Shown here piece after piece: positions 22,517 through 50,494 of a stretch of 64,000 nucleotides of DNA. Both the position numbers and the translations under genes were made by a program. This DNA comes from a virus. Within the stretch, counting starts at the first letter, position 1. Each line of letters begins with the position of its first letter. Below the pieces are notes generated by a model. The model made no database searches. It had not been told where the DNA came from and worked only from the letters and a program-made list of their open reading frames with translations. The stretch lies in IMG/VR virus record IMGVR_UViG_3300035204_001665, positions 1-64,000 of that record; one strand, written 5' to 3'.

Positions 22517-22521
22517 ATAAA

Positions 22522-30505: not shown

Positions 30506-33500
30506 TTACCCCCTATTTTGTGTGGATTGATGGAGTATTCCTCCCTGTCTTTTCTGCTGTACGATAGTCTCTACTACGGTTTGTTTGATAAGTGTTCCAA
30601 GCGATCTGGCCTTTTCGAGAGATATCCCTTCTCCTCCAGTATTTACGTCGGTCGTTATCCCTCCGTTTTCGTTTAGATTTACGTTAATTGTAATATTGTT
30701 TGTTGTATCCCCATCAGCGACAGAGGGCTCAGACATTATTCCTTTGGCATTTTTCTCTGATCCCTTGCTTGATCGTAGACCATTTCCGCCCACGTACCCG
30801 CCCGAAGCAAACGCAGGGACATTCCCCTTGTTCAGTTGGGTAAAGAAATCTGAACCGTATTTTTGTACTGCACTTCTATTGACTACGTATTCTCCGCCCA
30901 TTAACATGGCTGGGATAGCGTCGCCGATTAGTCCGCCCGTGGCCTTCCCGATACCTCTACTGGTTACCGCTCCTCCCGAAGCTCCACCTAGCCAGCTAAA
31001 GAAGTTGCCGCCGACGGTGCCTTGCGCTCCGGGCATGCCTAGCCCAGCGCCACCTGTTAATGCACTTATGCCTAATGATGCCGCAGCAGCGATCATGGAG
31101 TACTTCATTCTCTTCTTCTTCGCGGCCTTCCATTTTGCTACTGCTTCTGCATGGGCAATTAGATCACTTGCTCTATCTTCGTAGTAGCTATAAAGTTTGG
31201 ACACCTTGTCTTGTCTAATTTTGTTCCTTGGATTGTCACTGTCGGCAAGTGCTTGTCTAGTTAATCTAGGATCTATTGAAAAGTAACTATGATCAAGCGA
31301 CGGGAACTTATCACTATCGTAAACAAATGCATTTCTTAAATTATAATCTACCCATCTTCCCTCTCTCCCATGTTTTATATTCGAGACCAGTCCTTCTTGC
31401 GGATCGGCGAATGCGTTTGCCTCCCATTGCGCTTTTAACTTAGCTATGTCTTTGGTAGACATTCCTAGTCCACCGTGCGTCGTGGGCTCAGACAAGTGCG
31501 TCCAGTAATCTACCTTATAGTTCTTTTTTCCAAAGAAGCTGGGGTCTGGATCTGTGTGTTCATATTGAGGTAGACCTCTTTGTCTTCTTAAGGCGGTCAT
31601 TTCTGACACTAAAGTTTTGCTGCCGTCAGGATATAGAATATATGCCGGCTGGCCTAATTTTGGATCTCCGACAATCTTTCCGGGGCCTCTTCCTGCACGG
31701 ACGCCTGCACCGACTCTGCCTCCGGTGGCATATTTATTTACCGCCCCAAATCCCTCATTATTAATGAGATCAATTAGAGAAACTCCATACTTTTTAACCG
31801 CCGCTTTTCTTAGTACATATTCCCCTTGTTGTAAAAATGCAGGCACATCGTCTTTGGTTCCTGACCCTCCTACAACTGGTCCACCTCTAGCAAATTTTTG
31901 AACACCATTATTAGTAATCAAGCCACCCGTTGCTGCTGGAGCAGCCTGCGCGAACGAGCCTATTACTCTATTTACTGTCATCTGGAGTACTTGATCTAGA
32001 GCATAATCGGCCAACTTTAGGAACATGTCACTGAAAGCTTCCTCCAAAGTCTTAGTTCCCTTAATCGCTTCGCCAAACGCAGAAGCTATTCCGCTTCTGA
32101 ACTCCATGCCAAATGTAAATAATGCTTCATCAGCATCGATCATCATTTCTTTGGTTCCGTAGTGCCAAGCGGCGAAGAGATCCTTGAAGGTCTGCTTCAT
32201 TTGATAACTTCCGTCCTTAATAGACTTTCTAGTTTCTTCCCTTCGAGCTTCTATTGTTTCCCGACTTAGTGTTCCCGGGTCGAGCATGTCTAAATTAATT
32301 TGTTCTCTTAGGTCGGTTAAATCATTTTTTAGTTTCTTTATTTTTATATTTTTCCATGCTTCCTCTAGACTCTTTCCATCTTTCGCCATTTGTTCCAGCA
32401 ATTTTGCTTGGTGTTCATATTTCTTGGCCTCCTCAGAGGCCGCTAGGGCTCCTTCCACATCTTCGCCTAACATCAAGGTATCGTGTTTAGCCCAAGCTCG
32501 CTTTGCTGCCACTTTCATATTTTCGATTACTGGAGCTATGGGAGTAGTAATACCCGGTTGGATTTTGCCCGGCATTAGATCTGGATGATCCTTAAGAAGA
32601 GACGCGGTACCCACTTGCCACGCTGCCCTTCCTGCTTGCCAAGTTTTTTCCTCTTGTGCAGAAATAGCTGAAGGCATTGCCCCAGAAGCCTTCATCAAAT
32701 AAAGAGTTCTTCTTTCTAGTTGGAACCGATTATCGTGAGCCTCCTTGGACATTTTGAGACTATTCTCGTGAAAGTTCTTCTGAGCCTTTGTCATCGCTAA
32801 GTAAAACTCTCTTATCTGCTTAGGCGTTAGCTTCTGACCGCCAAGGTCTAGTTGGGTTAGCTCGTCAAAGAGCCGCTTTTGTACTTCCGGGCTTTGCCCG
32901 GGACCAAATACATCCTCCGAGGTACCAAGGCTACCCTGAAGATATCCATGAAGCACTCGGCCACCTTGCTTATTTAAGCCAAATTTCTTTTCTAAATCTG
33001 TTATCCATTTTGGGCGTTCCCCCTTTCCTTGTATGCCCAAAGACGCAAGCAGCCCTCCCAGCTTTTTCTTAAGGGGGCTTTTACTATCTGACCAGTAAGG
33101 TACTCCCGGAGCCTCGCCGCCCAAGGGCCTAGCATCTATACCGGCTCTACGGGCCGCCTCAGGGGTTTGGTTCCACCCTATGTTCAAGCTCCTCCAAGAA
33201 TTAGCCGGGGCCTGTCCGGCTTGGATAAGCCTAGATTGACTAGGAAACAGCCCAAGCGGCGCATACCCGGGCCTTTTGCCCCCTGAAGAAGTATCAAGTC
33301 CCAAGCGTTTTTTGATCGTATCAATGAGGTTCTGGTCCTTGCCGCCTCCTCCAGTTCCAAACATAAACTGCTCTAAACTTTTTTCTATTCTCTTCTCAAG
33401 GCCGCTGGCCAATTGTTGCAAGTTGTCAGATGTCGCTGGGCCACTTCTCAATTGCAGGATTGAACGATCTAGTTCTTTTATCTCCGCGTCCAATTGTTGA

Positions 33501-36500
33501 AGCTGTAGGTTAAAGCCTTCTTTTAATAATTTTTGTAGCTCTTTAAGTGTGTCTCTCTGTGCGTCTGTAGCGTCCTCCATCACTGACCTAATATCTTCCA
33601 TCACTAACTGGGTACCTAATTGTTCATTCGGGGCAAGTATTTTTCTTATTTGTTCATCTAATTTCTTCTTCTTGGCGGGCATCCTTTGAATTGCATATAA
33701 AGTGGGGTCGAGACCTTCCAGCCTTATCTGGTCTGTTAGACCACCAATCAAATCATCAAGATTGTCTACTTGGTCCTCGACATATTGTTTTAATATTTTA
33801 TCTACTTCCTTTTGGGCAATCTGGATATCGAGATATCTCTCACGAATTACAGAGTCTGACTGCATTGCTGCTTGCCTTAATGCGTTAGCTTGCGTTTTGT
33901 AATGTTCGTATTTGGCCCTTAGTTGTGCTATTTTTTTCGGGTCCTCTTCCTGCGCCTCCATAATCTCTAGCTCTAGTCGCATTTCCTCTGCCATGACCTT
34001 GGTTTGATCAGATTCCTTCAATCGCGCATTTCTCCAAGCGGTCGCAGTTGGTCGGGTAGCCTGCGCTGCACTCGCTGCACTAGGATCTCTTGTCGCCGCT
34101 CCCCAGAAATCGAAACCGGTCGATTGACCTCCTTGGTATGCCATACTCGCATAATTTTTCCTCCAAGCGTCCATGGATAAACCTATTCGCCCACTACGCA
34201 TTTCTCTTTGTCCGGCTCTATTAGCGGTTGGTGTAAGTGACGCCTCGAAAATTCTTCTATTTAATTGACTTAAGTCTTCATTAGCTTGATCTGCATTCTT
34301 TAATTGCATTTCAAATAATATTCTTCGACGTTCTGTCTTGGCTGCTTCGTCTTTAATTTCGTTGTCGTAAATTTTAGCAAATTGGCTTTCGTATTTTCTT
34401 ACTCTTAGTTCATTTAAATTAGCGAGTGAGGTTATTTTTTCCTGAACCGTTTTCATTGGGGATAATTGAGTATCCAAGTTATCTAACATGGCATTTTCTA
34501 AAGCATCATTGAGATCAATCATTTGATCCTTTATATACGTTTTCATCTCTTCGCCCAGTGGGCCCTGTTGGGCTTTAGCTAAGTGTCTCCATCCGCCAAC
34601 GCCGAACATCTGACCTCCCACGCCAGAGAGTCTTCCCGCCTGATCCCAATTTGATCCGAGTTCAGGTTGCCCAAATAATCTGCCTATGCCGGGTTGATGC
34701 ACGGAAGTTCTAAGCATGGAGCCTCTATCTCCTATTGGAATACCGGCAGCAGTAAATTTTTCTTCTGTAGCTTTTCTTCCTCGTCTCCAATCCCCCACAG
34801 CCGAAGCGTGCTCTGTTGCCATTTGTTTTTTCCATTCTACATGTTTTTCCGCTGGAGTCAACCCGGCCCATTTTGCCTTGGCATTGTCGCCGTATTTTTT
34901 AACGTAGTGTGCTGGTGGAACTGTCTGAGTGTCAGCTGGCATCGCCCCCCTTCTCGGCGCGGGAGCGTCATAGCCTTTAACCTCTTCAGCTGTGATGCCA
35001 TATCTAGCCGCCTGTAAACTCACGTTGGGAGTATAACCCCCGAATTGGAGCCTTTCCATACTCGCACTATGACGCGTGGCTCGTGCAGCAGAAAAAGCTG
35101 CCCGATTGTCCCTAGTCGCAGGAAGTCTTTCGAGCTTCATCAATTTTTGTACGTTATCGTCTAGCGTGCCTTGTAGTTTTCTGAAGAAGTTCTCATGATC
35201 TTCGTCGAAAAGAACTTCTAGTCTGTCGACTAAAGTTTTTTGGAAATCTGTTAAGGCGAAGTCACCACCGAGAATCTTATCGAAATCTTGATCTCTTCCC
35301 CAGTCCGCAAATACTTCTTTAAATTTATAGCCAAGCGAAGTGTCTTTTAATTGACCCAATTCAGTCCTAGATTCAAGACCTGTAAACTTTGCGCGTTTAA
35401 AGGCCGTGTCTGCCGCATAGCCTTTTTCCATAAATTTTTGTATATCTATATCCCTCAAGATTTGAAGGGCCTTTATTTGATCTTGAAGGCTTCCGGCTTG
35501 GACGTTCGCTATGGCTTTTTCAATTCTTAGCCTGTACTCTTGGAGCTTTACGACATCTCCATGCTCCTCCCCAATCTTCTTGATTGCTTCCAAGACTCCC
35601 ATCAGCTGCGCCTGTTCCAATGCGTCCTGTCGGTCGAAATTATCAATGTCATTATCAAACTTGTCTTGCAGCTGCTCGAGTCTCGATCTTATAGAACCCT
35701 CTATTTTGCTTTCCTTAATGCCTGTCTCCAATGCCATTTGTACTTCATTGAGGACGGATTGAGGGCTACTTTCTGCCACCGCAGTCAATCCCAGACGTGT
35801 CCCAGTTCCGAAGCCCGCCCATTCCTTAGCAGTTCCGCCTCTGAAGAGCCACTCTGCCTCTTTTTGTATTCTTTTAAAGTCTGGTAATATAGCATCCATT
35901 TGCGACATGCGCTCTTGCTGCTGGTTCCACCAAAACTCTTTACCCCAATCTGTAAATAAGGACGGTCCGGCTGTCATAGGCCTTAAGTTAGGGTCACGGC
36001 CTTCATTTAGGCGTTCCCTCTCCTCGTTGTAGTATTCTTGATCTCTCAATGCTGCCAGCCTTTTTAGTCCGGTAGCTAAATCTCTTAACTCAGCATCAGT
36101 CATATCTATAGACTTCTTGCCTCCCTTACCGCCTTTGGTCCATCCGCCAACAAGTGAAGCTTTATATCTCTCGGCATCCTCTTGATCTTTGAGATTCTCA
36201 GATGCCTGCAGCCTGAAATAAGCGTCGATCGCAAGAGCACCTTGCCAGAATCTATTCTTTTTCATTCCAGACTCTCCGTACGAGCCGGCCTTCGGAACCT
36301 CTTTCCTTGCTGTCTCTTTATCTACTGCGAGCTCTATCCTCGCATCTCTCACTTTTAGTGCTTGGTTGCGCACAGCTCTTTCTCTAAAATCCCTTGCTAA
36401 ATCCGCCGGCGGCGGCGGATTTAAAGGCCCGGCCCCGGAAACTTCAAAAACTTGACCACCTTGGTCGATGGCACGTTCCTTAGCCTTAAGATTCAGAACC

Positions 36501-39500: not shown

Positions 39501-42500
39501 GCGGCTCCTCCACCGAATCCACCTTCTACACCTGTTTTGTCACCGCCCTGATGGCCCCAGAACCACCACCCAATTTCGTCACGCTCCTTCCTGCCTTTTT
39601 CTATAGTTCCCGCAGCTTCAATGTCTTTAGCAACATCCTTCAGGGATTTTTCGATTCTTTCGAAGGTCTTTTTGAGTTCGTCGCCGCTATGAGCAGCCGC
39701 CCTAACATCCGCAGCAAATTCTCTCGGTACATTTCTTACGGACTCGAACATCGCGTCCGTTCTCTTTTTTAATTGTTCGGGGCTGATATCTGGATCAGTT
39801 AAAGCCTGCTGGTATTCAGCTTGATTCTTAAGATACTCTTGGGAAAGATTTTGAAACTCTTGCAGTTTTTCATTTGCCCCCTCTAGGGCCTCCTTCCATT
39901 TTTTGGTTTGGTCTCTAGAAGCTTCTCCCCACTTTTCAATTCCATCCAACACAGCGAATGTTGCAGCGCCAGCCATCACCCATGGATTGCCGCTCATTGC
40001 TCCCATCAAGCCAATGCTCATGCTATCTTGGACGACCTTGGACTTCTGCTCATCCATTCCGAGCCCGGCCATTGCTCCGCCGACCATAGGCATCGCCATC
40101 ATTCCCATCATTGCCCCCTGTTGACCCCACTGTCCAACCATTCCTCCGCCGCGCTTCAACGAACCCATCATACCGCCCCCCGCCGCTCCAGCGGCGGCAC
40201 CGCCTACCATTTGCCCTGACGACATTGCATTTCTATTGTGCGCAGCAGCTTCTCTCGTGAGAGCTGCAGAATTTTTGTCATGTGCAGCGCGCTCTTCTTG
40301 AAGATCTATTTCTAGTTGCTTTCTTGTTGCTACTTCCTTATCGAGAGCTGCTCCTTCTTTTGTTCTTGAAACTTTATTCTTTTTTCTTTGTTGGACGCTG
40401 GCCCTTATTTCGTCCGCTTCTTTTTTTCGGTCTTTATTAGATTGGGTTAAAATTTTGTTTTCTTCCTTTTCCAGCTTTTCCTTTTCCTCATCAGTCATCG
40501 AGCTAGTCTTCCTTCCTTTAAGTCCAGCCTTTTCTCTAGCTTCCGATTTTTCTTTTCCGGTTAAATCGTCCCTTCCTCTTTCCTTATCTAACTTGTCGGC
40601 CTTGGCTAAATCTTTATCGTCTTTCTTTGTATTTTTTAAGTTTTTGGCAAACTCTTCTAGCGCTTGTTCTGCTTGCTCTGCGCCGTCGCCCAATTCTCTC
40701 TGCCGTTCCTTAAGATCCTCGCCCTCTGCCTGCATTGCTTCGAACCTAGTTCTAAGCTCTATGGCGGCTGAGCCTGTCTCTTTAAATTTATCTGCCAAGT
40801 CTTTGGCTCCCATAGCCATAAAGGCCAGAGCCATCGTATTTATGCCGGTGTCTACGCCGGTCATTCCTCCCCCCTCATCCTCCGCAAAGTTGGGAACAAA
40901 CCCGCTTGAAGACAAAACCTTTTGAGCAGCCTTGGAGTTTTGCACTGCCCTACCTATACCTTCTGGATGATCCCTTACTACATCAGCGAAACTACTTTGA
41001 GTTTTAGCGTCTCTTACATAAACTCCCACCCTAGGATTATAATCTAACGTCGGCTTTCCACCGAGCGCCTGCTCTGTCTCGATTGCTTCCATCACTCCGA
41101 AATTAGGAATGAAGCCCCCAGATTTTCCTTTGCCCTTTGTTCCCTTTTTACTACTTACTTCCGAACGTATTCTCCTAAATTCATTGGCTATTTTTTCAGC
41201 CATACTTTTTCGAAGGGTCGGTGAATTCTGGGCCTTGTAATCTGCATGACCAACAAAGGGTACACCAAATAAGTTTCTAACTTTTCCTGATCCTTTTGTA
41301 CCCGATCTAACATCAAATCGTGCAGTTTCTACATCTTTAGCTCTAGCGAACGCTGCGTCTAATCCTGCTTCAAATACGTTGCCAACCGCAGATTTGAGAG
41401 CGCCAGTATTAAAATATTTCCCCGGCTCAGGAGTTAAAGCAGGCTTAATTGGGTCTGGACTGAATTCCCTTGCATACGCTGTCGCTGTTTTTGTCAAAGA
41501 TTTTTCTACCTTTTTATGTAAAGAGTCCCTCCTGTTCTTGGGTATGTCTGGGTCATAAATATTAAATTTTATTCTCGTACTTTTCTTTCCTCTACCTGTT
41601 CCCGGAACTGACGCTATTGCTGAGGTCCCACGCCCAGCCCCGAGTCCCATCTCTGGCACTAACATCGCAGCCGACCGAGTAGCATCCCAAACTCCCCCAA
41701 CTCTTCTCGGCTCAGCGACAGCGAAATTAGGAATAAATCCTCCAGAGAATAGTTTTTCTTTTCTTGCCGCTAAAGCGTTTTTGGTATCAAACCCCATTAT
41801 CCTATTCATTTCGCCAAGGCTTCCTATGGCGGGAGTGCCAGAGGGAGACATCGTCCAAGTAGAAAGTTCATTACCTCTATTTTTCGTTTCTATACCTATA
41901 CGATTTTCTAGAGTACGTAAATGGGCAGCAGCCATTTGATCACCGCCCTTTATTTTTGATTGCAGCCTTCTCTTTAGGTGGCGCAAGCTAGAACTATTTG
42001 TTTCATATAAAGTTTTTTTAAAAATTTGAGCGACATATCTGGCTCTAAAAGATGGCTTAGATTCAACCGCAAAGTTTCTTCCTCCCACTCTTTCTCCCGA
42101 ATCATAAGGTAACTTGAGTTTCTGTGGGTCCATGTCTTTTGCCGCTTGACTCTTGCCTCTAAATCGACCCATTCCAAATCCTCCGTATCTTGCGGCAAGT
42201 GCGGCTTCCTGTTGTCCTCCTTTTTTCGCCGCTCTCCTTCCTGTTCCTTTCGTAAATCCGGCCCTTTCTTTTTCGGTTATTGGTTTTTGTTGACCCAGCG
42301 TATTGATGGTTACATATTCACTTCCGGGAATAACATATTTAATGACTTTGCCTAGTTCTGGGCCGACCTCTTTAGCTAGCACGTCTCCCCTAATTTTTAA
42401 TCTGCCACTAGACCCCTGTCTTCCCTGCTTGTCTACGCCAAGGCGTAGGGACGTAAGAAATTGCAAAAGGTTTGGAACAAATCCAAATGCGCTAGGTCCA

Positions 42501-44425
42501 GACGAATCCGGACTAAACCCCCATTGAGATTCGAATGCTTTCCCGTAAGATTTTCCCGCCTTGCCGGGGGGGATAATCGCTGGCTGTTTTATTCCGGGAA
42601 ATCTTTTTACTTTTTCTGCGCCGTTATAAGTCACCCTTCCTTCTCCCGGAATACTCATTGTTTTAATCCGTCCGGGTTTATAACCTGCCTGCAGAGCACC
42701 AATGTATTCGCTCATTCCGGCGTTAAAGCTAGGAACATGACCTGAACTTTTTCTGATGAGTGTAGTCGTTCCTGTAGATTTATCAATTCTCGCGCCGACT
42801 TGCGAGCCCACCGCCGGAGTCATTTGTCTTGAAAGGGACAAGAGCTTTTCTCTTGCGATAATTTCTGACTTCAAGGCTTCTAAAATCAAGTTTTCAGCTT
42901 TGAGTACGGACATCTCTCCGGTTTCTATCTTTTTAATTAAAGCTGGGTTAGACGAAAGGATACCGTGAATTTGTTGCTGAACCGCTGCCTGTTGCTGGGC
43001 AGCTTTATTCAGCCCCATCATATCTTTCGTAGACTTAGCAAGGAAAGTTACAAAGTTATAAAATAATTTACCCGCTATCGCTGTTAGCGCTATCAATCCC
43101 GGTCCAGATAAAAAGTTCCCGATAGACTGCATTACGCCCTTTGCCATCCTCCCCCCGAAATCGTTAGCTTCTTTATCGTTGAAACCGAAGAACCCTGCGA
43201 TGTCTCCAAAAAAACTAGTTTTCTCAGTCAATTTATTAAAACCGTCCAATAGAGCCCTAAACGCTGGCTCAAATGACAGTGCCCCTATCTCTGCGCCCAT
43301 CTTGGTAAGATTTTGCACAGACTCATTTGTTAGTGCCGCTAAGGTTTTATTTAGTTCTTGATTTCTACGTATGGCTTCATCAGTAGTATTAAGCGAAGTC
43401 TTAAGTGCTTGTTCATATATAGACGTTCCCTTTTTTAAATCTCCTAAAATCGCCTTTAAAATATTCATCTGATAAACACCACCGACCAGCTCTGCGGTTT
43501 GAGCCTTGGCTGCAGAACCCAAGCCATCATACGCCTTCGCGAAATCTTTCATGATTGCCATGGCTGGGCGTAAGTCTCCGTTCATCTTCTTTACTTGAAC
43601 GCCCAAAGCTTCTAACTGTTGCTGGACACCTGTCCTCTGGACTCTTGTAAAAATTGTTTTTAGGGAGTTACCAATAATATTACCGCCTCTGGCAGTTGTT
43701 TGTTGGGCTGAAGTAACCACCGCTATCAGTTCATCAAAACTTACATTTGCTCCTTCAGCGGTTGATGCGACTCTTTTTATAGCCTCAGCTAAATCATTAG
43801 TACTAACCGCGAAAGCTGCATCCACATTTGCCATTTTATTAATAATTTCCGTAGAGGTAATTGCCGTTCTATTGAAACTGTTAATAGCGGCCGTTAGAGA
43901 ATTCACGGCGGCGGTGGCATCCATACCCGATAGTCTCATTAATATCAGAGCGTCTCTTGTTCGAGTAATGGTTTTTTCCATTCCCAGACCCTGCCTAGCA
44001 AATTCTTGAGCGGCCTCACCGACCTGTTGAAAAGATTGCCCTGTATTTTTTGCTACGTCGAAGAGGTTATTACTGAATTTTTTTAAATTTGAACTTGAAG
44101 CATTGAGAATTACATTGATGCCAGCTAGAGTTTTTTCAACCTCTATTGTAGCTTTAGCCATTTCCTTAAAAGCACTAGTAACTCCATATAAAATTCCTGC
44201 CGAAGCGGTAAAGGCAATAACGCGGGCGTTAGAAGCATCTAAACTTTTTTGGAATTCGGCGATTGAACCAGTAATTTTACCAAGTGGTTGGGTGAATTTT
44301 TTAGAGTCTATGCCCTGTAGTTTTATTTGGGTACGCTCAGCCTTTCTGGCAAAATTAGCCAGATCCTTCTCCGCTCGACTAGTATCTAACCTAGCCTCTC
44401 CTTCAATTCTAAAGTCTACAGCCAT
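30506..44425 (-). CDS. Giant tail tape measure protein (4639 aa)
   Basis: TP901-type TMP core (EFARQG, AAFAV...DLAEAI.R, GN.LKTIFTR), long helical regions, and C-terminal GG.V.G.SGTKDDVPA.L..GEYV motifs. Lies downstream of the tube and chaperone genes. Confidence 0.9.
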   Translation of the reverse strand: MAVDFRIEGEARLDTSRAEKDLANFARKAERTQIKLQGIDSKKFTQPLGKITGSIAEFQKSLDASNARVIAFTASAGILYGVTSAFKEMAKATIEVEKTLAGINVILNASSSNLKKFSNNLFDVAKNTGQSFQQVGEAAQEFARQGLGMEKTITRTRDALILMRLSGMDATAAVNSLTAAINSFNRTAITSTEIINKMANVDAAFAVSTNDLAEAIKRVASTAEGANVSFDELIAVVTSAQQTTARGGNIIGNSLKTIFTRVQRTGVQQQLEALGVQVKKMNGDLRPAMAIMKDFAKAYDGLGSAAKAQTAELVGGVYQMNILKAILGDLKKGTSIYEQALKTSLNTTDEAIRRNQELNKTLAALTNESVQNLTKMGAEIGALSFEPAFRALLDGFNKLTEKTSFFGDIAGFFGFNDKEANDFGGRMAKGVMQSIGNFLSGPGLIALTAIAGKLFYNFVTFLAKSTKDMMGLNKAAQQQAAVQQQIHGILSSNPALIKKIETGEMSVLKAENLILEALKSEIIAREKLLSLSRQMTPAVGSQVGARIDKSTGTTTLIRKSSGHVPSFNAGMSEYIGALQAGYKPGRIKTMSIPGEGRVTYNGAEKVKRFPGIKQPAIIPPGKAGKSYGKAFESQWGFSPDSSGPSAFGFVPNLLQFLTSLRLGVDKQGRQGSSGRLKIRGDVLAKEVGPELGKVIKYVIPGSEYVTINTLGQQKPITEKERAGFTKGTGRRAAKKGGQQEAALAARYGGFGMGRFRGKSQAAKDMDPQKLKLPYDSGERVGGRNFAVESKPSFRARYVAQIFKKTLYETNSSSLRHLKRRLQSKIKGGDQMAAAHLRTLENRIGIETKNRGNELSTWTMSPSGTPAIGSLGEMNRIMGFDTKNALAARKEKLFSGGFIPNFAVAEPRRVGGVWDATRSAAMLVPEMGLGAGRGTSAIASVPGTGRGKKSTRIKFNIYDPDIPKNRRDSLHKKVEKSLTKTATAYAREFSPDPIKPALTPEPGKYFNTGALKSAVGNVFEAGLDAAFARAKDVETARFDVRSGTKGSGKVRNLFGVPFVGHADYKAQNSPTLRKSMAEKIANEFRRIRSEVSSKKGTKGKGKSGGFIPNFGVMEAIETEQALGGKPTLDYNPRVGVYVRDAKTQSSFADVVRDHPEGIGRAVQNSKAAQKVLSSSGFVPNFAEDEGGGMTGVDTGINTMALAFMAMGAKDLADKFKETGSAAIELRTRFEAMQAEGEDLKERQRELGDGAEQAEQALEEFAKNLKNTKKDDKDLAKADKLDKERGRDDLTGKEKSEAREKAGLKGRKTSSMTDEEKEKLEKEENKILTQSNKDRKKEADEIRASVQQRKKNKVSRTKEGAALDKEVATRKQLEIDLQEERAAHDKNSAALTREAAAHNRNAMSSGQMVGGAAAGAAGGGMMGSLKRGGGMVGQWGQQGAMMGMMAMPMVGGAMAGLGMDEQKSKVVQDSMSIGLMGAMSGNPWVMAGAATFAVLDGIEKWGEASRDQTKKWKEALEGANEKLQEFQNLSQEYLKNQAEYQQALTDPDISPEQLKKRTDAMFESVRNVPREFAADVRAAAHSGDELKKTFERIEKSLKDVAKDIEAAGTIEKGRKERDEIGWWFWGHQGGDKTGVEGGFGGGAAAAGGAEQARKQRFNAAAARDAVVDSVMRRLEKEDVQGFAGKELRRKLMAGTRPGIKHNERVKNNMQWFAEVGLNPELMEAIEQVLVKGIHDMTALNGAILHRLKAESEAADELDKLAEVIRKNKEISGVFNVAMKRAGEQLDHFNFNLKSITDIARKRVEGHNERRRMRESYSRKAVLTNARGHSKLIDPFEGKWDQMQRKQQIAEMATMEKYLASGQLLVAKTQRSIIGVLDKKLDENAKTVQRLQLKQYKEGQPLSITEKTELKKRERAQQAFSEILGKALHQSAAAPEQMMPNIVKNLRRELNTVGLSSTEIDSVVNEIGSLKESAEQSLMKLLQQQQEEIMIQKIQTKNQERLIELQQQLKFGGGIASFAGGERWKKTRSLREERAEAEFSPTIPQRLMNRGRADFKSLQDLTKNFSMDAGQLSDPTYDKMIASAVLGLTLDVQKQLKIKDKNLRSWGGAKPDDELWRQGVFKSMSEGAIDDAMQQVSAALKLKALPEDVIKIRNDMELLREMFGDQWRFLEEANQSAFTRAIKETGIDNIGTVITATNEAGFQSIDDSLSRLITAFNVGFGIQTYMKNLQEINKNEKRAMQLMNSTSDAEQERLSQQGKMDVQFKDLRSKYLAMQMGWMKWDQGNLLADGSGGTAEKAQREARTAQAKAFMSVGQALFDDPNLSHAGRVEALKQIARGQIPSDVRFDSGVLANMGPDFQANLAVAKAGNWQPWEKDAAGNTVWSQDGMYRKRGTYTQKELDAGRIVPLGGGALPAIGDDFFENGVSDEGDFFVKYKKGEEATLYGALSQIIDRNVGTGTQWVKMFTSLLGGTTGGDRVINQQGAWFMAKKLGYTGVEPNDRTGDRGDEDWLASYKHAYQKYMKYGEDLPNISRRAQIAEKERLAEAHRQRGDIWTLKGDNITEFSRRDNIDKHEKRELEIQRKKAYSEAERHKKLSIKLSKEALGMSEEWDLAPNDKQEQYFKDALEWERRRIRLLDERIDRQEAVLNLKAKERAIDQGGQVFEVSGAGPLNPPPPADLARDFRERAVRNQALKVRDARIELAVDKETARKEVPKAGSYGESGMKKNRFWQGALAIDAYFRLQASENLKDQEDAERYKASLVGGWTKGGKGGKKSIDMTDAELRDLATGLKRLAALRDQEYYNEERERLNEGRDPNLRPMTAGPSLFTDWGKEFWWNQQQERMSQMDAILPDFKRIQKEAEWLFRGGTAKEWAGFGTGTRLGLTAVAESSPQSVLNEVQMALETGIKESKIEGSIRSRLEQLQDKFDNDIDNFDRQDALEQAQLMGVLEAIKKIGEEHGDVVKLQEYRLRIEKAIANVQAGSLQDQIKALQILRDIDIQKFMEKGYAADTAFKRAKFTGLESRTELGQLKDTSLGYKFKEVFADWGRDQDFDKILGGDFALTDFQKTLVDRLEVLFDEDHENFFRKLQGTLDDNVQKLMKLERLPATRDNRAAFSAARATRHSASMERLQFGGYTPNVSLQAARYGITAEEVKGYDAPAPRRGAMPADTQTVPPAHYVKKYGDNAKAKWAGLTPAEKHVEWKKQMATEHASAVGDWRRGRKATEEKFTAAGIPIGDRGSMLRTSVHQPGIGRLFGQPELGSNWDQAGRLSGVGGQMFGVGGWRHLAKAQQGPLGEEMKTYIKDQMIDLNDALENAMLDNLDTQLSPMKTVQEKITSLANLNELRVRKYESQFAKIYDNEIKDEAAKTERRRILFEMQLKNADQANEDLSQLNRRIFEASLTPTANRAGQREMRSGRIGLSMDAWRKNYASMAYQGGQSTGFDFWGAATRDPSAASAAQATRPTATAWRNARLKESDQTKVMAEEMRLELEIMEAQEEDPKKIAQLRAKYEHYKTQANALRQAAMQSDSVIRERYLDIQIAQKEVDKILKQYVEDQVDNLDDLIGGLTDQIRLEGLDPTLYAIQRMPAKKKKLDEQIRKILAPNEQLGTQLVMEDIRSVMEDATDAQRDTLKELQKLLKEGFNLQLQQLDAEIKELDRSILQLRSGPATSDNLQQLASGLEKRIEKSLEQFMFGTGGGGKDQNLIDTIKKRLGLDTSSGGKRPGYAPLGLFPSQSRLIQAGQAPANSWRSLNIGWNQTPEAARRAGIDARPLGGEAPGVPYWSDSKSPLKKKLGGLLASLGIQGKGERPKWITDLEKKFGLNKQGGRVLHGYLQGSLGTSEDVFGPGQSPEVQKRLFDELTQLDLGGQKLTPKQIREFYLAMTKAQKNFHENSLKMSKEAHDNRFQLERRTLYLMKASGAMPSAISAQEEKTWQAGRAAWQVGTASLLKDHPDLMPGKIQPGITTPIAPVIENMKVAAKRAWAKHDTLMLGEDVEGALAASEEAKKYEHQAKLLEQMAKDGKSLEEAWKNIKIKKLKNDLTDLREQINLDMLDPGTLSRETIEARREETRKSIKDGSYQMKQTFKDLFAAWHYGTKEMMIDADEALFTFGMEFRSGIASAFGEAIKGTKTLEEAFSDMFLKLADYALDQVLQMTVNRVIGSFAQAAPAATGGLITNNGVQKFARGGPVVGGSGTKDDVPAFLQQGEYVLRKAAVKKYGVSLIDLINNEGFGAVNKYATGGRVGAGVRAGRGPGKIVGDPKLGQPAYILYPDGSKTLVSEMTALRRQRGLPQYEHTDPDPSFFGKKNYKVDYWTHLSEPTTHGGLGMSTKDIAKLKAQWEANAFADPQEGLVSNIKHGREGRWVDYNLRNAFVYDSDKFPSLDHSYFSIDPRLTRQALADSDNPRNKIRQDKVSKLYSYYEDRASDLIAHAEAVAKWKAAKKKRMKYSMIAAAASLGISALTGGAGLGMPGAQGTVGGNFFSWLGGASGGAVTSRGIGKATGGLIGDAIPAMLMGGEYVVNRSAVQKYGSDFFTQLNKGNVPAFASGGYVGGNGLRSSKGSEKNAKGIMSEPSVADGDTTNNITINVNLNENGGITTDVNTGGEGISLEKARSLGTLIKQTVVETIVQQKRQGGILHQSTQNRG

Positions 44426-44467: not shown

Positions 44468-45496
44468 TTATTGATGATGAATCTCAATAAAATCATCCAT
44501 ATCCATAGTTCCCCCTCTTTTGGCTGCTTCATCAGCTAAGTTTATAGTTTGACTACTATTTTGCTTGTATCCTAGTTTTTCTAGGTCCTTTTTGGTCGCA
44601 CCGACAATTGTAGACGCGCCTTGCCCTTGCGCCCCCTTACCTTTGCTCATTTTCTCCATAGCTTCTTCTGCGTTTTTAGACCCCTCATAGAATTCAATCA
44701 GCGCGTCAGGGTCTTTTCTGATTTGCATTGGGGCTGGCGTCTTGGCGTCTTGAGCTAAATTTTTAAAATATCTACCATAAGTATATAGTTCATTTTGATT
44801 GTGGGTAAGTTGAACGACTGGTCTGCCATAAAAGTTGTATATATTATCATCACACAAATAAAAGAAATTTGTAAAAAATGTACATAACGATATTCTTTTT
44901 ATGTTTAAGTGATTAAGTAACTTACTTCTTGAACTATACGCTTGATATATAGAGGTCAGTTCCTGATCATTTAGTTCATCGAATTCCTCGGGAGAATAGA
45001 GTAGCTTTTTATATTCCTTATCCTTAAAGAGTACTTGGTGCATAAAATATTCGTTGCTTCTTTTTTCTGCGTATGCTTCTGCCACGAAACCTACTAGCTG
45101 ATTTCTTCTGTTTATTATCTCATTAAGTTTTTTAGAGTTTTCTTCAATTAATTTTCTAACCCTTTGGATTTCGGAGTCTAGAAATAACTTGCTTTTAGTT
45201 GCTTGAAGATTGTCGGTATAAGTTTTGAGCTGGGCCATTTCTGTCTCTTGTGACCTATCCCAAAGACCTTCCGAAGCTAGATAGTCTAATTGCTCTCTTC
45301 TAGTGGGTAGCCCCATACCCCTAGCTTTATCAAAAGAATTTTTGTAACATTTGTCCGTATCTATGGAGTCATAGACATTTAGATGCTTTATATACCCCTC
45401 GTTATAATCGGTTTTTATGGGGGTATAGCCATTTAGAATATCTAGATATACTATTTTTAACTCTTCCTCAGAGGGCGCTGCTTCCTTTTTGGCCAT
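44468..45496 (-). CDS. Hypothetical protein, probable tail assembly chaperone
   Basis: Helical 342-aa protein immediately upstream of the TMP. Positional inference. Confidence 0.45.
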   Translation of the reverse strand: MAKKEAAPSEEELKIVYLDILNGYTPIKTDYNEGYIKHLNVYDSIDTDKCYKNSFDKARGMGLPTRREQLDYLASEGLWDRSQETEMAQLKTYTDNLQATKSKLFLDSEIQRVRKLIEENSKKLNEIINRRNQLVGFVAEAYAEKRSNEYFMHQVLFKDKEYKKLLYSPEEFDELNDQELTSIYQAYSSRSKLLNHLNIKRISLCTFFTNFFYLCDDNIYNFYGRPVVQLTHNQNELYTYGRYFKNLAQDAKTPAPMQIRKDPDALIEFYEGSKNAEEAMEKMSKGKGAQGQGASTIVGATKKDLEKLGYKQNSSQTINLADEAAKRGGTMDMDDFIEIHHQ

Positions 45497-45506
45497 GATA
45501 AAAGTT

Positions 45507-46490
45507 TTAAGTTAGGTTCACATCTTGATTTTCTTTTTCGACTTTGGCTTCGCTTTCCGTTTTTTCTTTGTCCGCAGCTTCGCTTTTAACTTTAGCTTTT
45601 GTTTTGACCCTTTTCTTTTTTTCTTTTGCACTAGACTCTTTAGCCACAGCCACAGTTTCTTCAACTTGTATTTCATTTTCTGCTCCTTCTTCTCCCTCTT
45701 TTCCTTGTTCGAATTCTACCTCGTATTTAGAGTCATCCTCTCCTAGGTCTGCTTGCTCTGCGAATTTAATTAGTTCCTTAAACTGATCGGGATCGCTAGT
45801 CTTACTTACGTACCAGAAACTTACATAATAAAAAAACTTATTAAGTGTGCCCAGTACCCAATCATCATCGTTTTCTTCCATCTCATCATATCTAGCCAGC
45901 TTTTCTTCATAAGTGCCCTCTCCAAAATAGCTAGACTCTTTTTCTTTTTCGTCGACCTGATAACCAAGGTGGAGAACCCACCAAAGAATAGTCTTGTTTC
46001 TTGCCCTATTTTCTGCAGTTTGATCATAAAGACTAGACTGATTCGATTCAAATTCCTGTATCCTTTCTCTAGCGTTAGAAAGAAATTCCGAAATCTCTGT
46101 GAATTTTTCCTTTTCTTCTGCGGATCTTTCTTCTGTAGTTTTTAGGGCAATCTTTTGTAATTCTACTTGCTTGTCGAATACGTCGTTATATAACGCGCCG
46201 AACTCGTCTTTTTCCTTGTCACTTAAGATGCCCCCATCGTTACTAAATCTTTTTGCCAACAACGCCCTAGTTAAAAGGCCGGCCTTAATACCTTCTGATA
46301 GCTTGACCCCATAGAATAGCTCCGCATCATCATATAGTTTTCTAGTGGGCCTTCTAATGAAAAACTTCTTGTCTACAGATTTAATTACATCTTTACTGAC
46401 TGTAATATCTGCACCGTCATCGCCCTTTCCCTGAGATACCTCCTTTACCGTCTCCTCTTTAGGGAGAACAAATTCATATATTCTTTTCAT
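45507..46490 (-). CDS. Hypothetical protein, probable tail assembly chaperone
   Basis: Coiled-coil, acidic protein between the tube gene and the TMP. Positional inference. Confidence 0.45.
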   Translation of the reverse strand: MKRIYEFVLPKEETVKEVSQGKGDDGADITVSKDVIKSVDKKFFIRRPTRKLYDDAELFYGVKLSEGIKAGLLTRALLAKRFSNDGGILSDKEKDEFGALYNDVFDKQVELQKIALKTTEERSAEEKEKFTEISEFLSNARERIQEFESNQSSLYDQTAENRARNKTILWWVLHLGYQVDEKEKESSYFGEGTYEEKLARYDEMEENDDDWVLGTLNKFFYYVSFWYVSKTSDPDQFKELIKFAEQADLGEDDSKYEVEFEQGKEGEEGAENEIQVEETVAVAKESSAKEKKKRVKTKAKVKSEAADKEKTESEAKVEKENQDVNLT

Positions 46491-46514
46491 ACCTTTTTCC
46501 TTATTATTATATTT

Positions 46515-46739
46515 TTATTTGAACTTAATATCAAAATTTTCCAGACTTTCCTCGAGCTCTCTTATGGCGTCATTACCATAATCTAGTACTCTTTTCCTAA
46601 TTTTTTGATAATCTTCGGGGGGAATAGATTGATCGTGGACCTTTAAGTCTTCAATAAGAATCAGAAAGTTTTTACACAAATTGATTACTTTCCTCCTATT
46701 GTGGAATGCAATAAATTCCCTACCTTTTTTTCCGTCCAT
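46515..46739 (-). CDS. Hypothetical protein
   Basis: 74-aa ORF with AAGGA-type RBS upstream. Confidence 0.6.
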   Translation of the reverse strand: MDGKKGREFIAFHNRRKVINLCKNFLILIEDLKVHDQSIPPEDYQKIRKRVLDYGNDAIRELEESLENFDIKFK

Positions 46740-46791
46740 TAATCCTTACTCCTTACCTATATTATACAGTTCAAAAAGCCTTAATTAATAT

Positions 46792-46823
46792 AAAAAAACC
46801 CCCCATTTTTCAATGGGAGGTTT
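46792..46823 (-). terminator. Rho-independent terminator after the tail tube gene
   Basis: AAACCTCCCATT-GAAA-AATGGGGGGTTT followed by a T run. Confidence 0.85.
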
Positions 46824-46844
46824 CTGTTTGTGTTAACTAAGGAA

Positions 46845-47954
46845 TTAGCTTACCGAACCACTCATGAACAATCCTCTATCAGTTTGAGAGGATGAACCGA
46901 TTTGAGTACTAAACGTTAGCGTTACGGACTCGTTATCTCCAATCGAGCTAGTAAAGGACTGGCTGTCCAATTTAGCCTTCTTAAGGAGGAACGCGATGTG
47001 TGCGTTTGCGCCATCGTTCAGGTGAACCGTCACGTCGTGGCTACGGTCCAAATCAATGATATCCGCTAGGTTACCAGTGGTTAAGTCTCCGACCAGTGCG
47101 TCTACGGTCATGGTTACTGTCACCGGGAAGGTAATCTCTCTAGCGAATGCAAAACGGCTGCCTAACTTATTCAGCGGCTCTCTTGCGAGGTCGAAACTAA
47201 GGTTATAGTTTTGAACCTTGGCATCACTAATCGCACCTTCCACGAATGGGAGGTCAAGAGTGATGTCACCGGGTTTGATCGCGTTAACGATACTCGAACC
47301 GGTTTGAGAGGTAGCTTCAGCAAGGCTGAACTTATATTTTGTGTTCTTCAAGCCGTCTGATGGGTTAACATGAGGTGAATATCCACCCGTACCTTGAATA
47401 AAGGCCATGTTAAGGGCTTCCACAGTAGATGAAGCCGTCGGGAATCCACCGACTGCTGCTTCAGATGTGTACGAAGCCATAAATCCATTACCAACGCCGA
47501 TCACGCGACTAAGATTAGTTGGGTTGCCGCCGTCTTCGGCTTCTGCGAATCCGACTGCGTCACTACCTTCAGATACAATCCGAATGTAGTAGTTTCTCTC
47601 GTCAGCGTCGTTATCCAAAATGTCAGTCAAACAGGACTCTGTCCCGCCTCCGATTTTGAATCCCATTTTATCTTCGTTATGGAAGCTGCAGAGATACCAA
47701 GAAAAGTCCAGACTTACAGTCGGCTGTTCCAAGATAACTCTATCGATGGCGGCGAGATCGCCGTATTGGTTTACGTCTTGTCTAGCGATGTCAAAACTAT
47801 AGTTAGCGCTTTGAATTCGCTTGAGCTGGTTAGGTGCATGTGTTCCAGACTCGTGATCCCAATCTCTTGTATCAACATGATTCGCGGAGTACCGCTTATC
47901 CGGTCCGGCGTACACTGCTTGACTTTGATAAATTACTCTATTTCTAGTGGCCAT
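46845..47954 (-). CDS. Major tail tube protein
   Basis: Beta-rich 369 aa with an internal duplication. Has its own RBS, late-type motif and terminator. Canonical position. Confidence 0.7.
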   Translation of the reverse strand: MATRNRVIYQSQAVYAGPDKRYSANHVDTRDWDHESGTHAPNQLKRIQSANYSFDIARQDVNQYGDLAAIDRVILEQPTVSLDFSWYLCSFHNEDKMGFKIGGGTESCLTDILDNDADERNYYIRIVSEGSDAVGFAEAEDGGNPTNLSRVIGVGNGFMASYTSEAAVGGFPTASSTVEALNMAFIQGTGGYSPHVNPSDGLKNTKYKFSLAEATSQTGSSIVNAIKPGDITLDLPFVEGAISDAKVQNYNLSFDLAREPLNKLGSRFAFAREITFPVTVTMTVDALVGDLTTGNLADIIDLDRSHDVTVHLNDGANAHIAFLLKKAKLDSQSFTSSIGDNESVTLTFSTQIGSSSQTDRGLFMSGSVS

Positions 47955-48013
47955 AATAAATATTCCTTATTTGTTATAAATTACATTTTATTTTAATTGT
48001 TGGGAACTATTGG

Positions 48014-48868
48014 TTACCCTTCTCGAGGATATCTTTCCAGCCCCAGTTCAAAATCTATGATTGCCTTAAATACCTCAGGGTTGGCGTTCTTTAGATTTTC
48101 CATATATCCCAAGCTAAATCTAGAAACATTTACTTCATCTATATGCAATTGATTATTATTGCCAATATCTCTAGTCAAGTTGTTATAATTATATACACCA
48201 GTTTTTAGTCCCCCAAGCACATTAAATGGATAATTTTGATCGGACAATATCGGGACCATAGTTCGAGCCTGATCCTTAAAAATAGAGCACGCTGCATCTA
48301 GGTTATATTGGGAATCAGCTAATATGACACCCCGAATGCTAATCTGAGTCCTGTCCAACCCGCCGAACGCCATCGGTTGGTTAGATCCACCGTTATTTTT
48401 AATAAAAATAGCAGGGTATGTAGTTACGGACGTGGGCAAACCCTCTACTGTTTGAGAGGTACTGGGTCTTAAGTCTATTTTATTCTCGAAAAGCAGTTCC
48501 TGTTCTGCCTTTGCAGTTAAATATACATTAAAATCTTTGACAGCATAATTTCCGCTAATTGTGCTGCTCGTGGTCGAATCGAAATAGACCTGCCCTTGGT
48601 TATAGTTAATATCTACCAACGGAGACTGGCCCGTGCTTTTAAAATTATTATCAACATATACTCCACTCAATATTTTAGCGTCTGTGATTGATTCGTCCGC
48701 CACCATTTGTTTGAACGGAGCTCCGTATGCATTGTAATTATAATATAACCCATCGACAGAATAGAAATTAGATCCGTAATTAGTATAGGCGTCTCCTTTG
48801 TCCAGCAAAGTATGATCTAACCATAATAGAAAGCTAGACATTACTCTATTTTCAAATTGAGTTTTCAT
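48014..48868 (-). CDS. Putative tail terminator/completion protein
   Basis: YPAIFI motif and position upstream of the tube gene. Confidence 0.45.
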   Translation of the reverse strand: MKTQFENRVMSSFLLWLDHTLLDKGDAYTNYGSNFYSVDGLYYNYNAYGAPFKQMVADESITDAKILSGVYVDNNFKSTGQSPLVDINYNQGQVYFDSTTSSTISGNYAVKDFNVYLTAKAEQELLFENKIDLRPSTSQTVEGLPTSVTTYPAIFIKNNGGSNQPMAFGGLDRTQISIRGVILADSQYNLDAACSIFKDQARTMVPILSDQNYPFNVLGGLKTGVYNYNNLTRDIGNNNQLHIDEVNVSRFSLGYMENLKNANPEVFKAIIDFELGLERYPREG

Positions 48869-49497
48869 AATCTACCCCATCCCGTTTTAAAAGTTTTCAA
48901 TATAGCTGACATATAGATAGTTCTTGTATACATTGCTGTACGCATTTCTCTGCTGGATTGTGTGCCCTTTCCGGACCGACTAGTCGGCACTATGTAAGTA
49001 TGATATATATAATTTCCTAACCCAGAGATCCCCTTTTCTATTCTCCGCAGCCAACTTCCCGGCTCCCAAGGCATAGGGGACGCAGAGTCCAGCTGTTTCA
49101 TATCTGGAGATTTTATACGGTAAGAATAGCTCACGCTTTTTTTTCTTACGGTCACGGTCGGCTTTCTTATTAATCTTGTATTAAATTCCAACATACTTCT
49201 TACTATACTAACCGGGCTGCTCCCAGCGTCAAAACCTATAAAAGTAAATAAGTTTCCATATCCGCCCAACGTTCCGCTTATATTCGCTGCAGATGCACCA
49301 GCTTCAATTTCTTTGGTGACTGGATGGTTATTAAAATTAGAAATTAATTCATTTCTTTTTCTAATAAATGCAGCGTTTACTCTTTGATGGACCTTGCGCT
49401 CTGGCTCGGAAGAAATTTGCCTTCCTTTTTTCTTCATACCGCTGTGCATCTTCGTTCTAACAGCGGTCTTGTTAATTTTAGCTTTAAATTTTCCCAT
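48865..49497 (-). CDS. Putative neck/tail completion protein (basic)
   Basis: Basic 210-aa protein in the connector-gene position. Confidence 0.4.
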   Translation of the reverse strand: MGKFKAKINKTAVRTKMHSGMKKKGRQISSEPERKVHQRVNAAFIRKRNELISNFNNHPVTKEIEAGASAANISGTLGGYGNLFTFIGFDAGSSPVSIVRSMLEFNTRLIRKPTVTVRKKSVSYSYRIKSPDMKQLDSASPMPWEPGSWLRRIEKGISGLGNYIYHTYIVPTSRSGKGTQSSREMRTAMYTRTIYMSAILKTFKTGWGRL

Positions 49498-49937
49498 TAA
49501 AATACCTCCTCGACAAAATATACATACATTTTCATACCGAAGTAGTCTTTAACTGAAGCACTGCTAACTAATTTGAAACTTTTTTCATCTATCTCTATTT
49601 TTATGGTTTTGCCAGTGTCTATGTAGTCCTTGGTGGCCTCCCTGACCTTAATCGCCACCTCTCCTTGGGGAATATTGATACCTGCCCAAGCTTCGGTCTC
49701 TTGTCCTTGTTTTCTATTGTACTGTATGATCGCCTTGTGCTTTTCACTTCTAGGCAAGTATTCTATGTTGGCGGGGGCAGAGGTCTCATCATATCCGGGT
49801 AATAGGTGAGCATCTACAGCCACCACTTTTTTCTGTGGTTCTTTATGAACAGTTATATCCCTAGAAAATGTATCAAACAAATCCAAAACTGAATTTTGGA
49901 AAGATACCTTATCTGTATTTGACAGTAGATCAGCCAT
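49497..49937 (-). CDS. Putative head-tail joining (stopper) protein
   Basis: 146 aa, beta-rich. Positional inference. Confidence 0.4.
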   Translation of the reverse strand: MADLLSNTDKVSFQNSVLDLFDTFSRDITVHKEPQKKVVAVDAHLLPGYDETSAPANIEYLPRSEKHKAIIQYNRKQGQETEAWAGINIPQGEVAIKVREATKDYIDTGKTIKIEIDEKSFKLVSSASVKDYFGMKMYVYFVEEVF

Positions 49938-49939
49938 AT

Positions 49940-50458
49940 TTAACTAGGATTCGTAGTGGGGCGGTTGAAATCTGTTCCAGCTCCATAGTCTCCAGCCGTA
50001 GTATCGTCCCCAGCGACCTGAAGGGGCGCAGAAGCCCTACGTTGATAAGCTGCAATTAGCTTGTCTAAGTCTTCCATCTCCGTTTTCTTGGCCGTTTGAT
50101 AGGTTTGGCTTTGCTGTATTTTGTTAACTCTTCTTACCGATGTGCCGTCGGTTGATATTTCGACCCAAGTGTCTGTAGAAGCCGCGCCAAGAGACTCTCT
50201 CAATTTGACGTCGTAATGATAAATCATATACATTTTCTTGAGAATATTAGCTTCATCTACACATATTTCTAATATAGCCCCAGATTTATCTACCGTTTTT
50301 ATTTCAAAATCAGTACTATCTATGTAAAAATCGGTATTAATTCTAGAATTTAATAATCCGATGTTTGTTCTTAACCAAAAAGTTATGGGAGGGATTGATA
50401 AAGTGGATGGTTCTCCTAATTCTACATATATCTCATTTGCAACGTCAACTACTTTCAT
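49940..50458 (-). CDS. Putative head-tail adaptor protein
   Basis: 172 aa, first gene of the connector operon, preceded by AGTGTAAT. Confidence 0.4.
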   Translation of the reverse strand: MKVVDVANEIYVELGEPSTLSIPPITFWLRTNIGLLNSRINTDFYIDSTDFEIKTVDKSGAILEICVDEANILKKMYMIYHYDVKLRESLGAASTDTWVEISTDGTSVRRVNKIQQSQTYQTAKKTEMEDLDKLIAAYQRRASAPLQVAGDDTTAGDYGAGTDFNRPTTNPS

Positions 50459-50494
50459 ATCTCTTTATATTACACTTAATAATTTCTTCTTCTA

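Follow-up and report, generated by a model that had tools for sequence, protein, structure and literature searches.

A bracketed cassette of exchangeable basic modules in the tape measure protein of an uncultured phage

What is carried by a tape measure protein (TMP) in which a string of segments, set off from each other by copies of one short motif, follows the N-terminal domain? Phage TMPs are commonly seen as rulers that now and then carry a cell-wall hydrolase, and Rpf-like motifs occur in mycobacteriophage TMPs. Lytic transglycosylase lysins are among the enzymes described as sitting in TMPs (PMC10194240). The question is raised by a gene in the virus record IMGVR_UViG_3300035204_001665 of IMG/VR, of which positions 1 to 64,000 were analysed here (64,000 nucleotides, referred to as the window); the source record is linear, 82,869 bases long, and has a CheckV completeness estimate of 54%. 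An earlier reading of this DNA, the original prediction, held that this gene encodes a TMP that is a polyprotein, with repeats of a GFxPNF motif as processing or recombination sites between nuclease-like effectors. As outlined below, the repeats separate four discrete modules, named S1 to S4, and the resulting modular cassette is real and has not been described before.

The open reading frame (ORF) in question is unbroken across 13.9 kb. It matched PF10145 (PhageMin_Tail) over residues 125-312 with an E-value of 3.6e-26 (92.7 bits versus a cut-off of 33.2), and the NCBIfam model TIGR01760 (tape_meas_TP901) over residues 80-402 with an E-value of 1.6e-32 (112.9 bits versus a cut-off of 28.8), and by these core-domain matches it belongs to the TP901 family of TMPs. 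The PHROG tape-measure families that it matched, twelve in number, cover its N- and C-terminal parts, and the N-terminal 480 residues are 41-68% identical to those of its relatives. All three collections agree with the identification as a TMP in the original prediction.

A regular-expression scan recovered all five motif sites that had been pointed out before (Table 1), and the distances between successive motifs, 86, 248, 208 and 71 residues, are close to the earlier estimates of about 85, 245, 205 and 70. Against these five copies, all of which fit G[FHYW][IV]P[NS][FLV], 0.0015 matches to this expression would be expected by chance, and when the TMP was shuffled 20,000 times, 35 shuffles contained one copy and none contained two or more. 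Codon usage differs among the five copies, thus the linker is conserved as a peptide and not as DNA, and for the same reason we rejected the motif as a recombination repeat at the DNA level. A sixth, degenerate copy was found much further downstream, and searches with hidden Markov models (HMMs) detected no S1- or S4-like module beside this copy (residue 3130) and no extra S1 or S4 copies elsewhere in the window TMP. In the window TMP and its relatives the linker, (A/S)-x-G-F-(I/V)-P-N-F-A, is nearly invariant, and it is disordered by prediction: the predicted local distance difference test score (pLDDT) was below 50 at all six motif positions that were modelled with AlphaFold2. Predicted disorder at the motifs fits a cleavage site, and it equally fits a docking site.

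The cassette was modelled in two parts, model A with residues 888-1190 (S3 and S4; 43 sequences, mean pLDDT 68.6) and model B with residues 555-905 (S1 and S2; 34 sequences, mean pLDDT 66.0), in which the alignment of S2 was shallow, with about eight informative rows. In both models AlphaFold2 folded the modules (pLDDT 70-96) and left the linkers disordered, bearing out the claim that the motifs bound discrete modules. S1 was modelled as a helix, four short strands and a helix, and S4 as a helix, a beta-hairpin and further helices. The S3 model is alpha/beta, with four N-terminal strands followed by long helices and a core pLDDT of about 85. The S2 model is confident only at model residues 121-154, a small beta-alpha-alpha-beta unit, and in a hairpin of helices at 241-303 (pLDDT 92-96). 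The segments had been called non-helical; they are indeed not coiled coils, but their models are mixed alpha/beta with several long helices. The four modules are mutually dissimilar by profile, with hhalign probabilities of 0.1% both for the S3-type cluster c2 versus c7 (S2) and for c0 (S1) versus c1 (S4). The two large modules are strongly basic, as had been noticed from the letters, with 46 K/R versus 21 D/E in S2 (256 residues) and 39 versus 19 in S3 (216 residues). The net charge of the TMP peaks at residues 601-1100, at +8 to +11 per 100 residues, and the remainder of the rod is near neutral.

Table 1. Coordinates of the TMP gene and of the features within it, numbered along the window.
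Feature	TMP residues	Position	Strand	Remarks
TMP gene, P0001		30506..44425	-	4,639 residues, single ORF; PF10145 and twelve PHROG tape-measure families
TP901-type N-terminal core domain	80-402	43220..44188	-	TIGR01760; conserved
Linker copy 1, GHVPSF (SSGHVPSFN)	562-567	42725..42742	-	pLDDT <50, model B residues 1-15
S1, opening mini-domain, cluster c0	568-647	42485..42724	-	motif-bounded; AlphaFold2 pLDDT 76-85
Linker copy 2, GFVPNL (AFGFVPNLL)	648-653	42467..42484	-	pLDDT <50, model B residues 94-119
S2, rare large basic module, cluster c7	654-895	41741..42466	-	motif-bounded
Linker copy 3, GFIPNF (SGGFIPNFA)	896-901	41723..41740	-	pLDDT <50, models A and B
S3, common large basic module, clusters c2/c4/c13	902-1103	41117..41722	-	motif-bounded
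S3 conserved core: G1015, F1018, E1019, D1038, F1053, D1062, K1064, K1078	1015-1078	41192..41383	-	
Linker copy 4, GFIPNF (SGGFIPNFG)	1104-1109	41099..41116	-	pLDDT <50, model A residues 210-221
S4, closing mini-domain, cluster c1	1110-1174	40904..41098	-	motif-bounded
Linker copy 5, GFVPNF (SSGFVPNFA)	1175-1180	40886..40903	-	pLDDT <50, model A residues 288-303
Degenerate copy 6, GYTPNV (FGGYTPNVS)	3130-3135	35021..35038	-	regular expression; weaker, isolated
Six x-A-(R/T/S)-G-G motifs	4165-4543	30797..31933	-	overlap PHROG C-terminal matches phrog_13338, phrog_24, phrog_339

Relatives of the cassette were collected with phmmer, using residues 540-1200 as query against 1.84 billion representative proteins, which returned 340 proteins at E<=1e-3, 256 of them at E<=1e-10. 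Motifs and modules were counted in the best 150 of these 340 relatives (151 proteins with the window TMP). The motif occurs in 141 of the 150, most of them long TMPs of 2,000-5,000 residues, and the nine listed relatives that lack a match to the regular expression keep S1, flanked by degenerate G-hydrophobic-(I/V)-P sequences. Over the 151 proteins, 519 motif instances were found, with the consensus (A/K)(A/S)xGF(I/V)PNFA; half of the spacings (188 of 377) lie at 60-99 residues, and there is a second broad peak at about 240-310. The 333 inter-motif segments fell into 71 clusters that recur in the order c0, one or more large modules, and c1 or c3. The usual layout is an N-terminal domain of about 540 residues, c0 of about 83 residues, one to at least seven large modules, c1 or c3, and then a long rod, with the motif between units. 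The opening module c0 was present in 87 of the 151 proteins, and the closing module, of about 63-75 residues, was c1 in 46 proteins and the alternative c3 in 37. In the largest relatives (4,000-4,800 residues, e.g., P0028, P0030, P0044 and P0050) an S4-type module occurs again near mid-length, and about 300-500 residues before the C-terminus there is another module of the S1 type.

A search of IMG/VR with the S1 alignment gave 219 coding stretches, 80 loci of which were kept, and a scan of the same database with a single sequence gave no match. In most of the 80 loci, motifs are located near residues 540, 622, 880-910 and 955-985. A profile search with S3 and S4 found 146 proteins, nearly all with PF10145, and the cassette was always within TMPs. 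S1 and S4 are fixed brackets in hundreds of related TMPs of uncultured phages. The cassette was not found by tblastn in 50,697 deposited phage genomes, and in 185,579 species genomes it was present only in six contigs of metagenome-assembled genomes, thus this lineage is known solely from metagenomes. Several of the relatives come from protein sources with TARA labels. Some TMP-like proteins of about 1,000 residues stop just past the cassette; they look truncated or frameshifted and were not taken as evidence of natural splitting. One such ORF, on the related IMG/VR contig L011 (4390-7425, 1,011 residues), stops 37 residues past the closing motif and is followed in another frame by an ORF of 899 residues (7809-10508); this pair may stem from a frameshift, from faulty assembly or from a TMP that is split in nature.

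Between the brackets the content varies. When modules of at least 100 residues were counted as large, there were 141, namely 70 S3-type, 5 S2-type and 66 others that form 52 clusters, and 92% of these 66 carry a net positive charge. S3-type modules are common (66 of the 80 IMG/VR loci), and S2 is rare, with eight relatives among the 150 listed and none in the 80 loci; a second search for S2 homologues found three, none of them new. What the S3-type clusters c2, c4 and c13 have in common is confined to about 110 residues at the C-terminus (hhalign probability 89-96%), and c7 is unrelated to them. Relative P0004 agrees with the window TMP in its S1-S2-S3-S4 order, in P0005, P0009 and P0015 the modules after S2 are unrelated ones, P0011 to P0020 have S1-S3-S4 and no S2, and P0024 has neither S2 nor S3. 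Where the slot after S2 was covered, in eight proteins, it held an S3-type module in five and unrelated modules in three. Compared to P0004, the N-terminal domain, S1 and S4 of the window TMP are 62-64% identical, and S2 and S3 39-40%. Since the large modules span more than 50 families and differ between close relatives, exchange takes place at or near the linker. The alignment of homologues that had been suggested as a check therefore came out in favour of swapping, with different modules between the same motifs.

We then asked what the modules resemble. Foldseek searches of the PDB with the whole models A and B gave nothing above background (best E-values 0.67 and 2.9, respectively), and neither did a BFVD fold search with model A (best E-value 0.06) or VIA fold searches, a wide one on both models and a second look on model A; since S1 and S4 were not searched singly, the lack of a known fold is not established for these two. 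At the sequence level, Pfam gave no family for the cassette or for any single segment, even at E<=10, PHROG gave only two matches with E-values of about 0.09, both in S4, and NCBIfam scores were far under their cut-offs. A search of PDB sequences found nothing with a single sequence, and a profile gave a lectin as its best match, with an E-value of 0.066. In the ESM Atlas the best scores were 0.79 for S3 and 0.84 for S2, all under the threshold of the tool and only leads, and the same holds for a match of S2 at 0.83 that names LPD38, a family found on 24% of the members. Among nine module-rich cassettes of relatives (L040 was not one of them), the only Pfam match was PF16581 (HIGH_NTase1_ass) in L062 6241-10968, over 41 residues with an E-value of 1.4e-7.

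The proposal that S2 and S3 are PD-(D/E)XK nucleases deserves separate attention. The strings on which it was built, GGQQE...PYD...VESK and GNVFE...RFD...ADYK, do exist in the TMP sequence, and both modules display the residue pattern E...D...(D/E)xK, although such a linear pattern is not in itself enough to define the family. In S3 it is kept strictly, as helix-E...hydrophobic-D...(D/E)-x-K...K: among 130 S3-type modules, G1015, E1019, D/E1062 and K1064 are present in all 130, K1078 in 129 and D/E1038 in 123. The charged signature was found in 69 of 70 S3-type modules versus 3 of the 66 other large modules, where shuffles average 0.82. Of the S2 sequences that cover each string, 7 of 7 keep KG..xE, 8 of 8 keep P(Y/V/I)D as P-x-D, and 7 of 8 keep (V/I/M)E(S/A)K as E-x-K. 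Similarity by profile or fold did not follow. Pfam profiles gave no PD-(D/E)XK match in any segment, hmmscan of 43 S3-type homologues at E<=1 gave no nuclease family, and PF04471 (Mrr_cat) had no match in the whole record. When the S3 and S2 profiles were compared by hhalign to an Mrr_cat alignment, the one PD-(D/E)XK family used, the probability was 0.1%; this alignment contained 22 sequences from bacterial loci, after a 23rd domain (L109) had been dropped because its frame looked wrong. The combination of AlphaFold and Foldseek that had been proposed as a check for a nuclease fold likewise left models A and B without a known fold. The S3 model offers the pattern only one clear strand, which bears the D-x-K, and not the canonical alpha-beta-beta-beta-alpha-beta arrangement, and the PYD...VESK stretch of S2 has a pLDDT below 50 in model B. 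Titles and abstracts in the literature, as far as they were covered, describe no TMP-borne nuclease. The assignment to PD-(D/E)XK nucleases is thus not upheld. Judging from residue conservation, S3 probably has a functional polar site, which is possibly catalytic; its invariant E/D/DxK/K set fits an active site, and the fold does not confirm this. For S2 the case for a nuclease-like site is weaker than for S3.

How does this architecture compare to known systems? TP901-type TMPs with embedded accessory domains (transglycosylase or peptidase) have the same N-terminal core and, as here, inserts that are not rod; the inserts of the window TMP differ in that they match no hydrolase or other known family, are bracketed by S1 and S4 and joined by a linker, are strongly basic, and are exchanged among relatives. 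Phage polyvalent proteins are giant chains of unrelated domains that are presumed to reach the host together with the DNA and to be separated into units afterwards, and they are defined by known effector domains together with a pervasive MPTase peptidase for processing (PMC5512222). The window TMP shares with them the presence of several unrelated domains in one giant phage polypeptide. It differs in that Pfam recognised no peptidase or effector family in the TMP, the cassette or the nine relative cassettes, and in that the carrier is a TMP, a term that does not occur in that paper. Polymorphic toxins fused to virion proteins, such as those with MuF domains, have a variable toxin at the C-terminus that is usually paired with an immunity gene. 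The likeness lies in a conserved domain for incorporation into the virion combined with modules that vary between close relatives, but the window TMP has several variable modules, which lie internally and between brackets, and no toxin family was identified in them. Neither hydrolase TMPs nor polyvalent proteins nor polymorphic toxins are known to have the S1...S4 bracket or the GF(I/V)PNF linker. We found no account of the linker in the literature, where the literal strings occur only in unrelated work (supplements lay outside this search), and no description of a TMP with a repeated motif and modules. The architecture itself is solid and widespread.

The reading that we prefer, with a probability of roughly 45%, is that the region is a variable module cassette of a TP901-type TMP whose basic modules bind nucleic acid. 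Four separately folding modules are strung on a linker of predicted disorder behind the conserved N-terminal core. In lambda, T5 and SPP1, the C-terminus of the TMP is located at the tail tip and the N-terminus toward the head. Because the TMP N-terminus is head-proximal, the cassette is expected in the head-proximal lumen, where it would be near the leading DNA end and would leave last, just before the DNA. The strongly basic character of the modules makes nucleic-acid binding their most likely activity, and the target could be host nucleic acid or the leading end of the phage DNA, which the modules would pilot or protect. The invariance of its E/D/DxK/K set makes S3 a candidate metal-dependent phosphodiesterase. 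The linker would act as a short linear motif that is recognised by a partner, and this could be a docking surface or a protease by which the modules are set free. Several points weigh against this reading. Sequence, profile and fold searches gave no match to a family or fold known for DNA binding or nuclease activity, and no module of a relative points to an effector function, because the Pfam scan of their cassettes found nothing convincing. Three or more TMP chains with folded modules of 200-250 residues fit the tube lumen of a siphophage poorly, and the modules may be stored unfolded or serve inside the virion. Their positive charge would suit binding to an electronegative tube lumen equally well. 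Also, the cassette is not carried by any cultured phage, so that a biological anchor is lacking.

A role inside the virion is the main rival to nucleic-acid binding, and we consider it possible, without leaning toward it. The modules would then fasten the TMP by its head-proximal end to the electronegative lumen, the terminator, the neck or acidic tail chaperones, the GF(I/V)PNF peptides would be docking or clasp elements, and the variety of modules would reflect weak constraint and not a function in the host. Such a role is in line with the behaviour of S1, which is the most conserved module and persists in relatives without a large module, beside the degenerate form of the motif, and with the confinement of the cassette to TMPs, the generality of positive charge across modules and the absence of any enzyme or effector family recognised by Pfam in them, the nine relative cassettes included. 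It sits less easily with modules that number from one up to seven or more and are drawn from over 50 families, which would be unusual for a docking element, or with the invariant polar and charged set of S3, which resembles active sites; the near-neutral rod implies that most of the lumen can do without charge, and no partner has been identified.

The original prediction went further, to a polyprotein that is cut at GFxPNF to release S2 and S3 as interchangeable toxic nucleases. The E, D/E, D/E-x-K and K positions of S3, conserved in 123-130 of 130 modules with spacings typical of PD-(D/E)XK enzymes, the retained strings of S2, the predicted disorder around the motifs and the exchange of modules among relatives all speak for it. 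What makes it quite improbable in our view is the failure of every comparison to PD-(D/E)XK families described above together with the modelled disorder of the S2 motif stretch, the absence of the signature from 63 of the 66 other large modules, and the lack of a protease domain in the TMP according to Pfam; an immunity-like gene was not seen either, and none was searched for. That the repeats are a matter of chance or low complexity, or that the ORF is an assembly artefact, is virtually inconceivable: none of 20,000 shuffles had two or more copies, hundreds of metagenomic TMPs, independent of each other, show this motif and this order of modules, the ORF is unbroken throughout its 13.9 kb, and no supporting point was found.

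Other features of the TMP were also examined. The prediction had mentioned a second motif family at the C-terminus, and this is real: x-A-(R/T/S)-G-G occurs at residues 4165, 4179, 4233, 4482, 4495 and 4540, and once more at residue 245, so seven copies versus 0.79 expected, a number reached by none of 5,000 shuffles. Two or more such motifs in the last 600 residues were found in only 9 of 94 long relatives. About 220 residues past the cassette, residues 1401-1500 (39926-40225, minus strand) form a Gly/Met/Ala-rich, nearly uncharged and hydrophobic stretch, with 27 G+P, 48 hydrophobic, 5 K/R and 5 D/E per 100 residues, which on composition is a candidate membrane-inserting segment. The antisense ORFs 40455..40925 and 42461..42745 are Ser/Leu-rich and without support as genes, and scans of the window for Rfam families and tRNAs found neither.

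The genes around the TMP gave few matches. Upstream of it are ten ORFs of structural size with almost no PHROG or Pfam matches. Eight of the upstream ORFs, at 44468-53095 (minus strand), had none at E<=1e-3, and their products are probably the tube protein, tail chaperones and head-tail proteins. One ORF of 369 residues (46845-47954) had no tblastn match in deposited phages. This phage is very divergent. Further upstream of the tail genes are two giant ORFs on the minus strand, 57411-63869 (2,152 residues) and 53137-57414 (1,425 residues), both matching phrog_15511; the larger contains a Hint/intein-type domain at residues 520-683 (PF14890, E-value 6.5e-10) and a weak LamG-like stretch. On the plus strand, a gene for a GTPase of the tubulin/FtsZ family (29342-30499; PF00091, E-value 1.2e-12) is convergent with the TMP gene and ends 7 bases from its stop codon. 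The tail-tip genes at 20375-27675 (plus strand), gpL-like (PF05100, E-value 2e-28) and gpJ-like (1,717 residues; PF13550, PF24801), are on the opposite strand and converge on the TMP gene, which is unusual for the tail module of a siphophage. The window also contains a RecA-like gene (4022-5188, minus strand; PF00154, E-value 3.6e-16) and a gene resembling family 9 glycosyltransferases (16746-17939, plus strand; PF01075, E-value 6.2e-10).

Hundreds of TMPs of uncultured phages thus have in common a cassette that is bracketed and exchangeable and whose folded, basic modules belong to families not known so far. In its boldest form, the head-proximal part of the TMP in a widespread lineage of uncultured aquatic siphophages would be a cargo rack, from which basic modules of more than 50 unknown families, the S3-type being a new metal-dependent nuclease-like one, are freed at the linker and enter the cell directly before the DNA. 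We consider this unlikely; if true, the tail lumen would have its own version of polyvalent proteins and polymorphic toxins, equipped with a separate processing signal. Should the modules act in the host, they would represent a new delivery route for phage effectors or DNA-end pilots and a large reservoir of uncharacterised families, with the S3-type as a candidate new enzyme family. If they act in the virion, they would point to a step, unknown so far, by which very long tails anchor or release their TMP. In both cases the linker motif is a simple handle to find and excise such modules.

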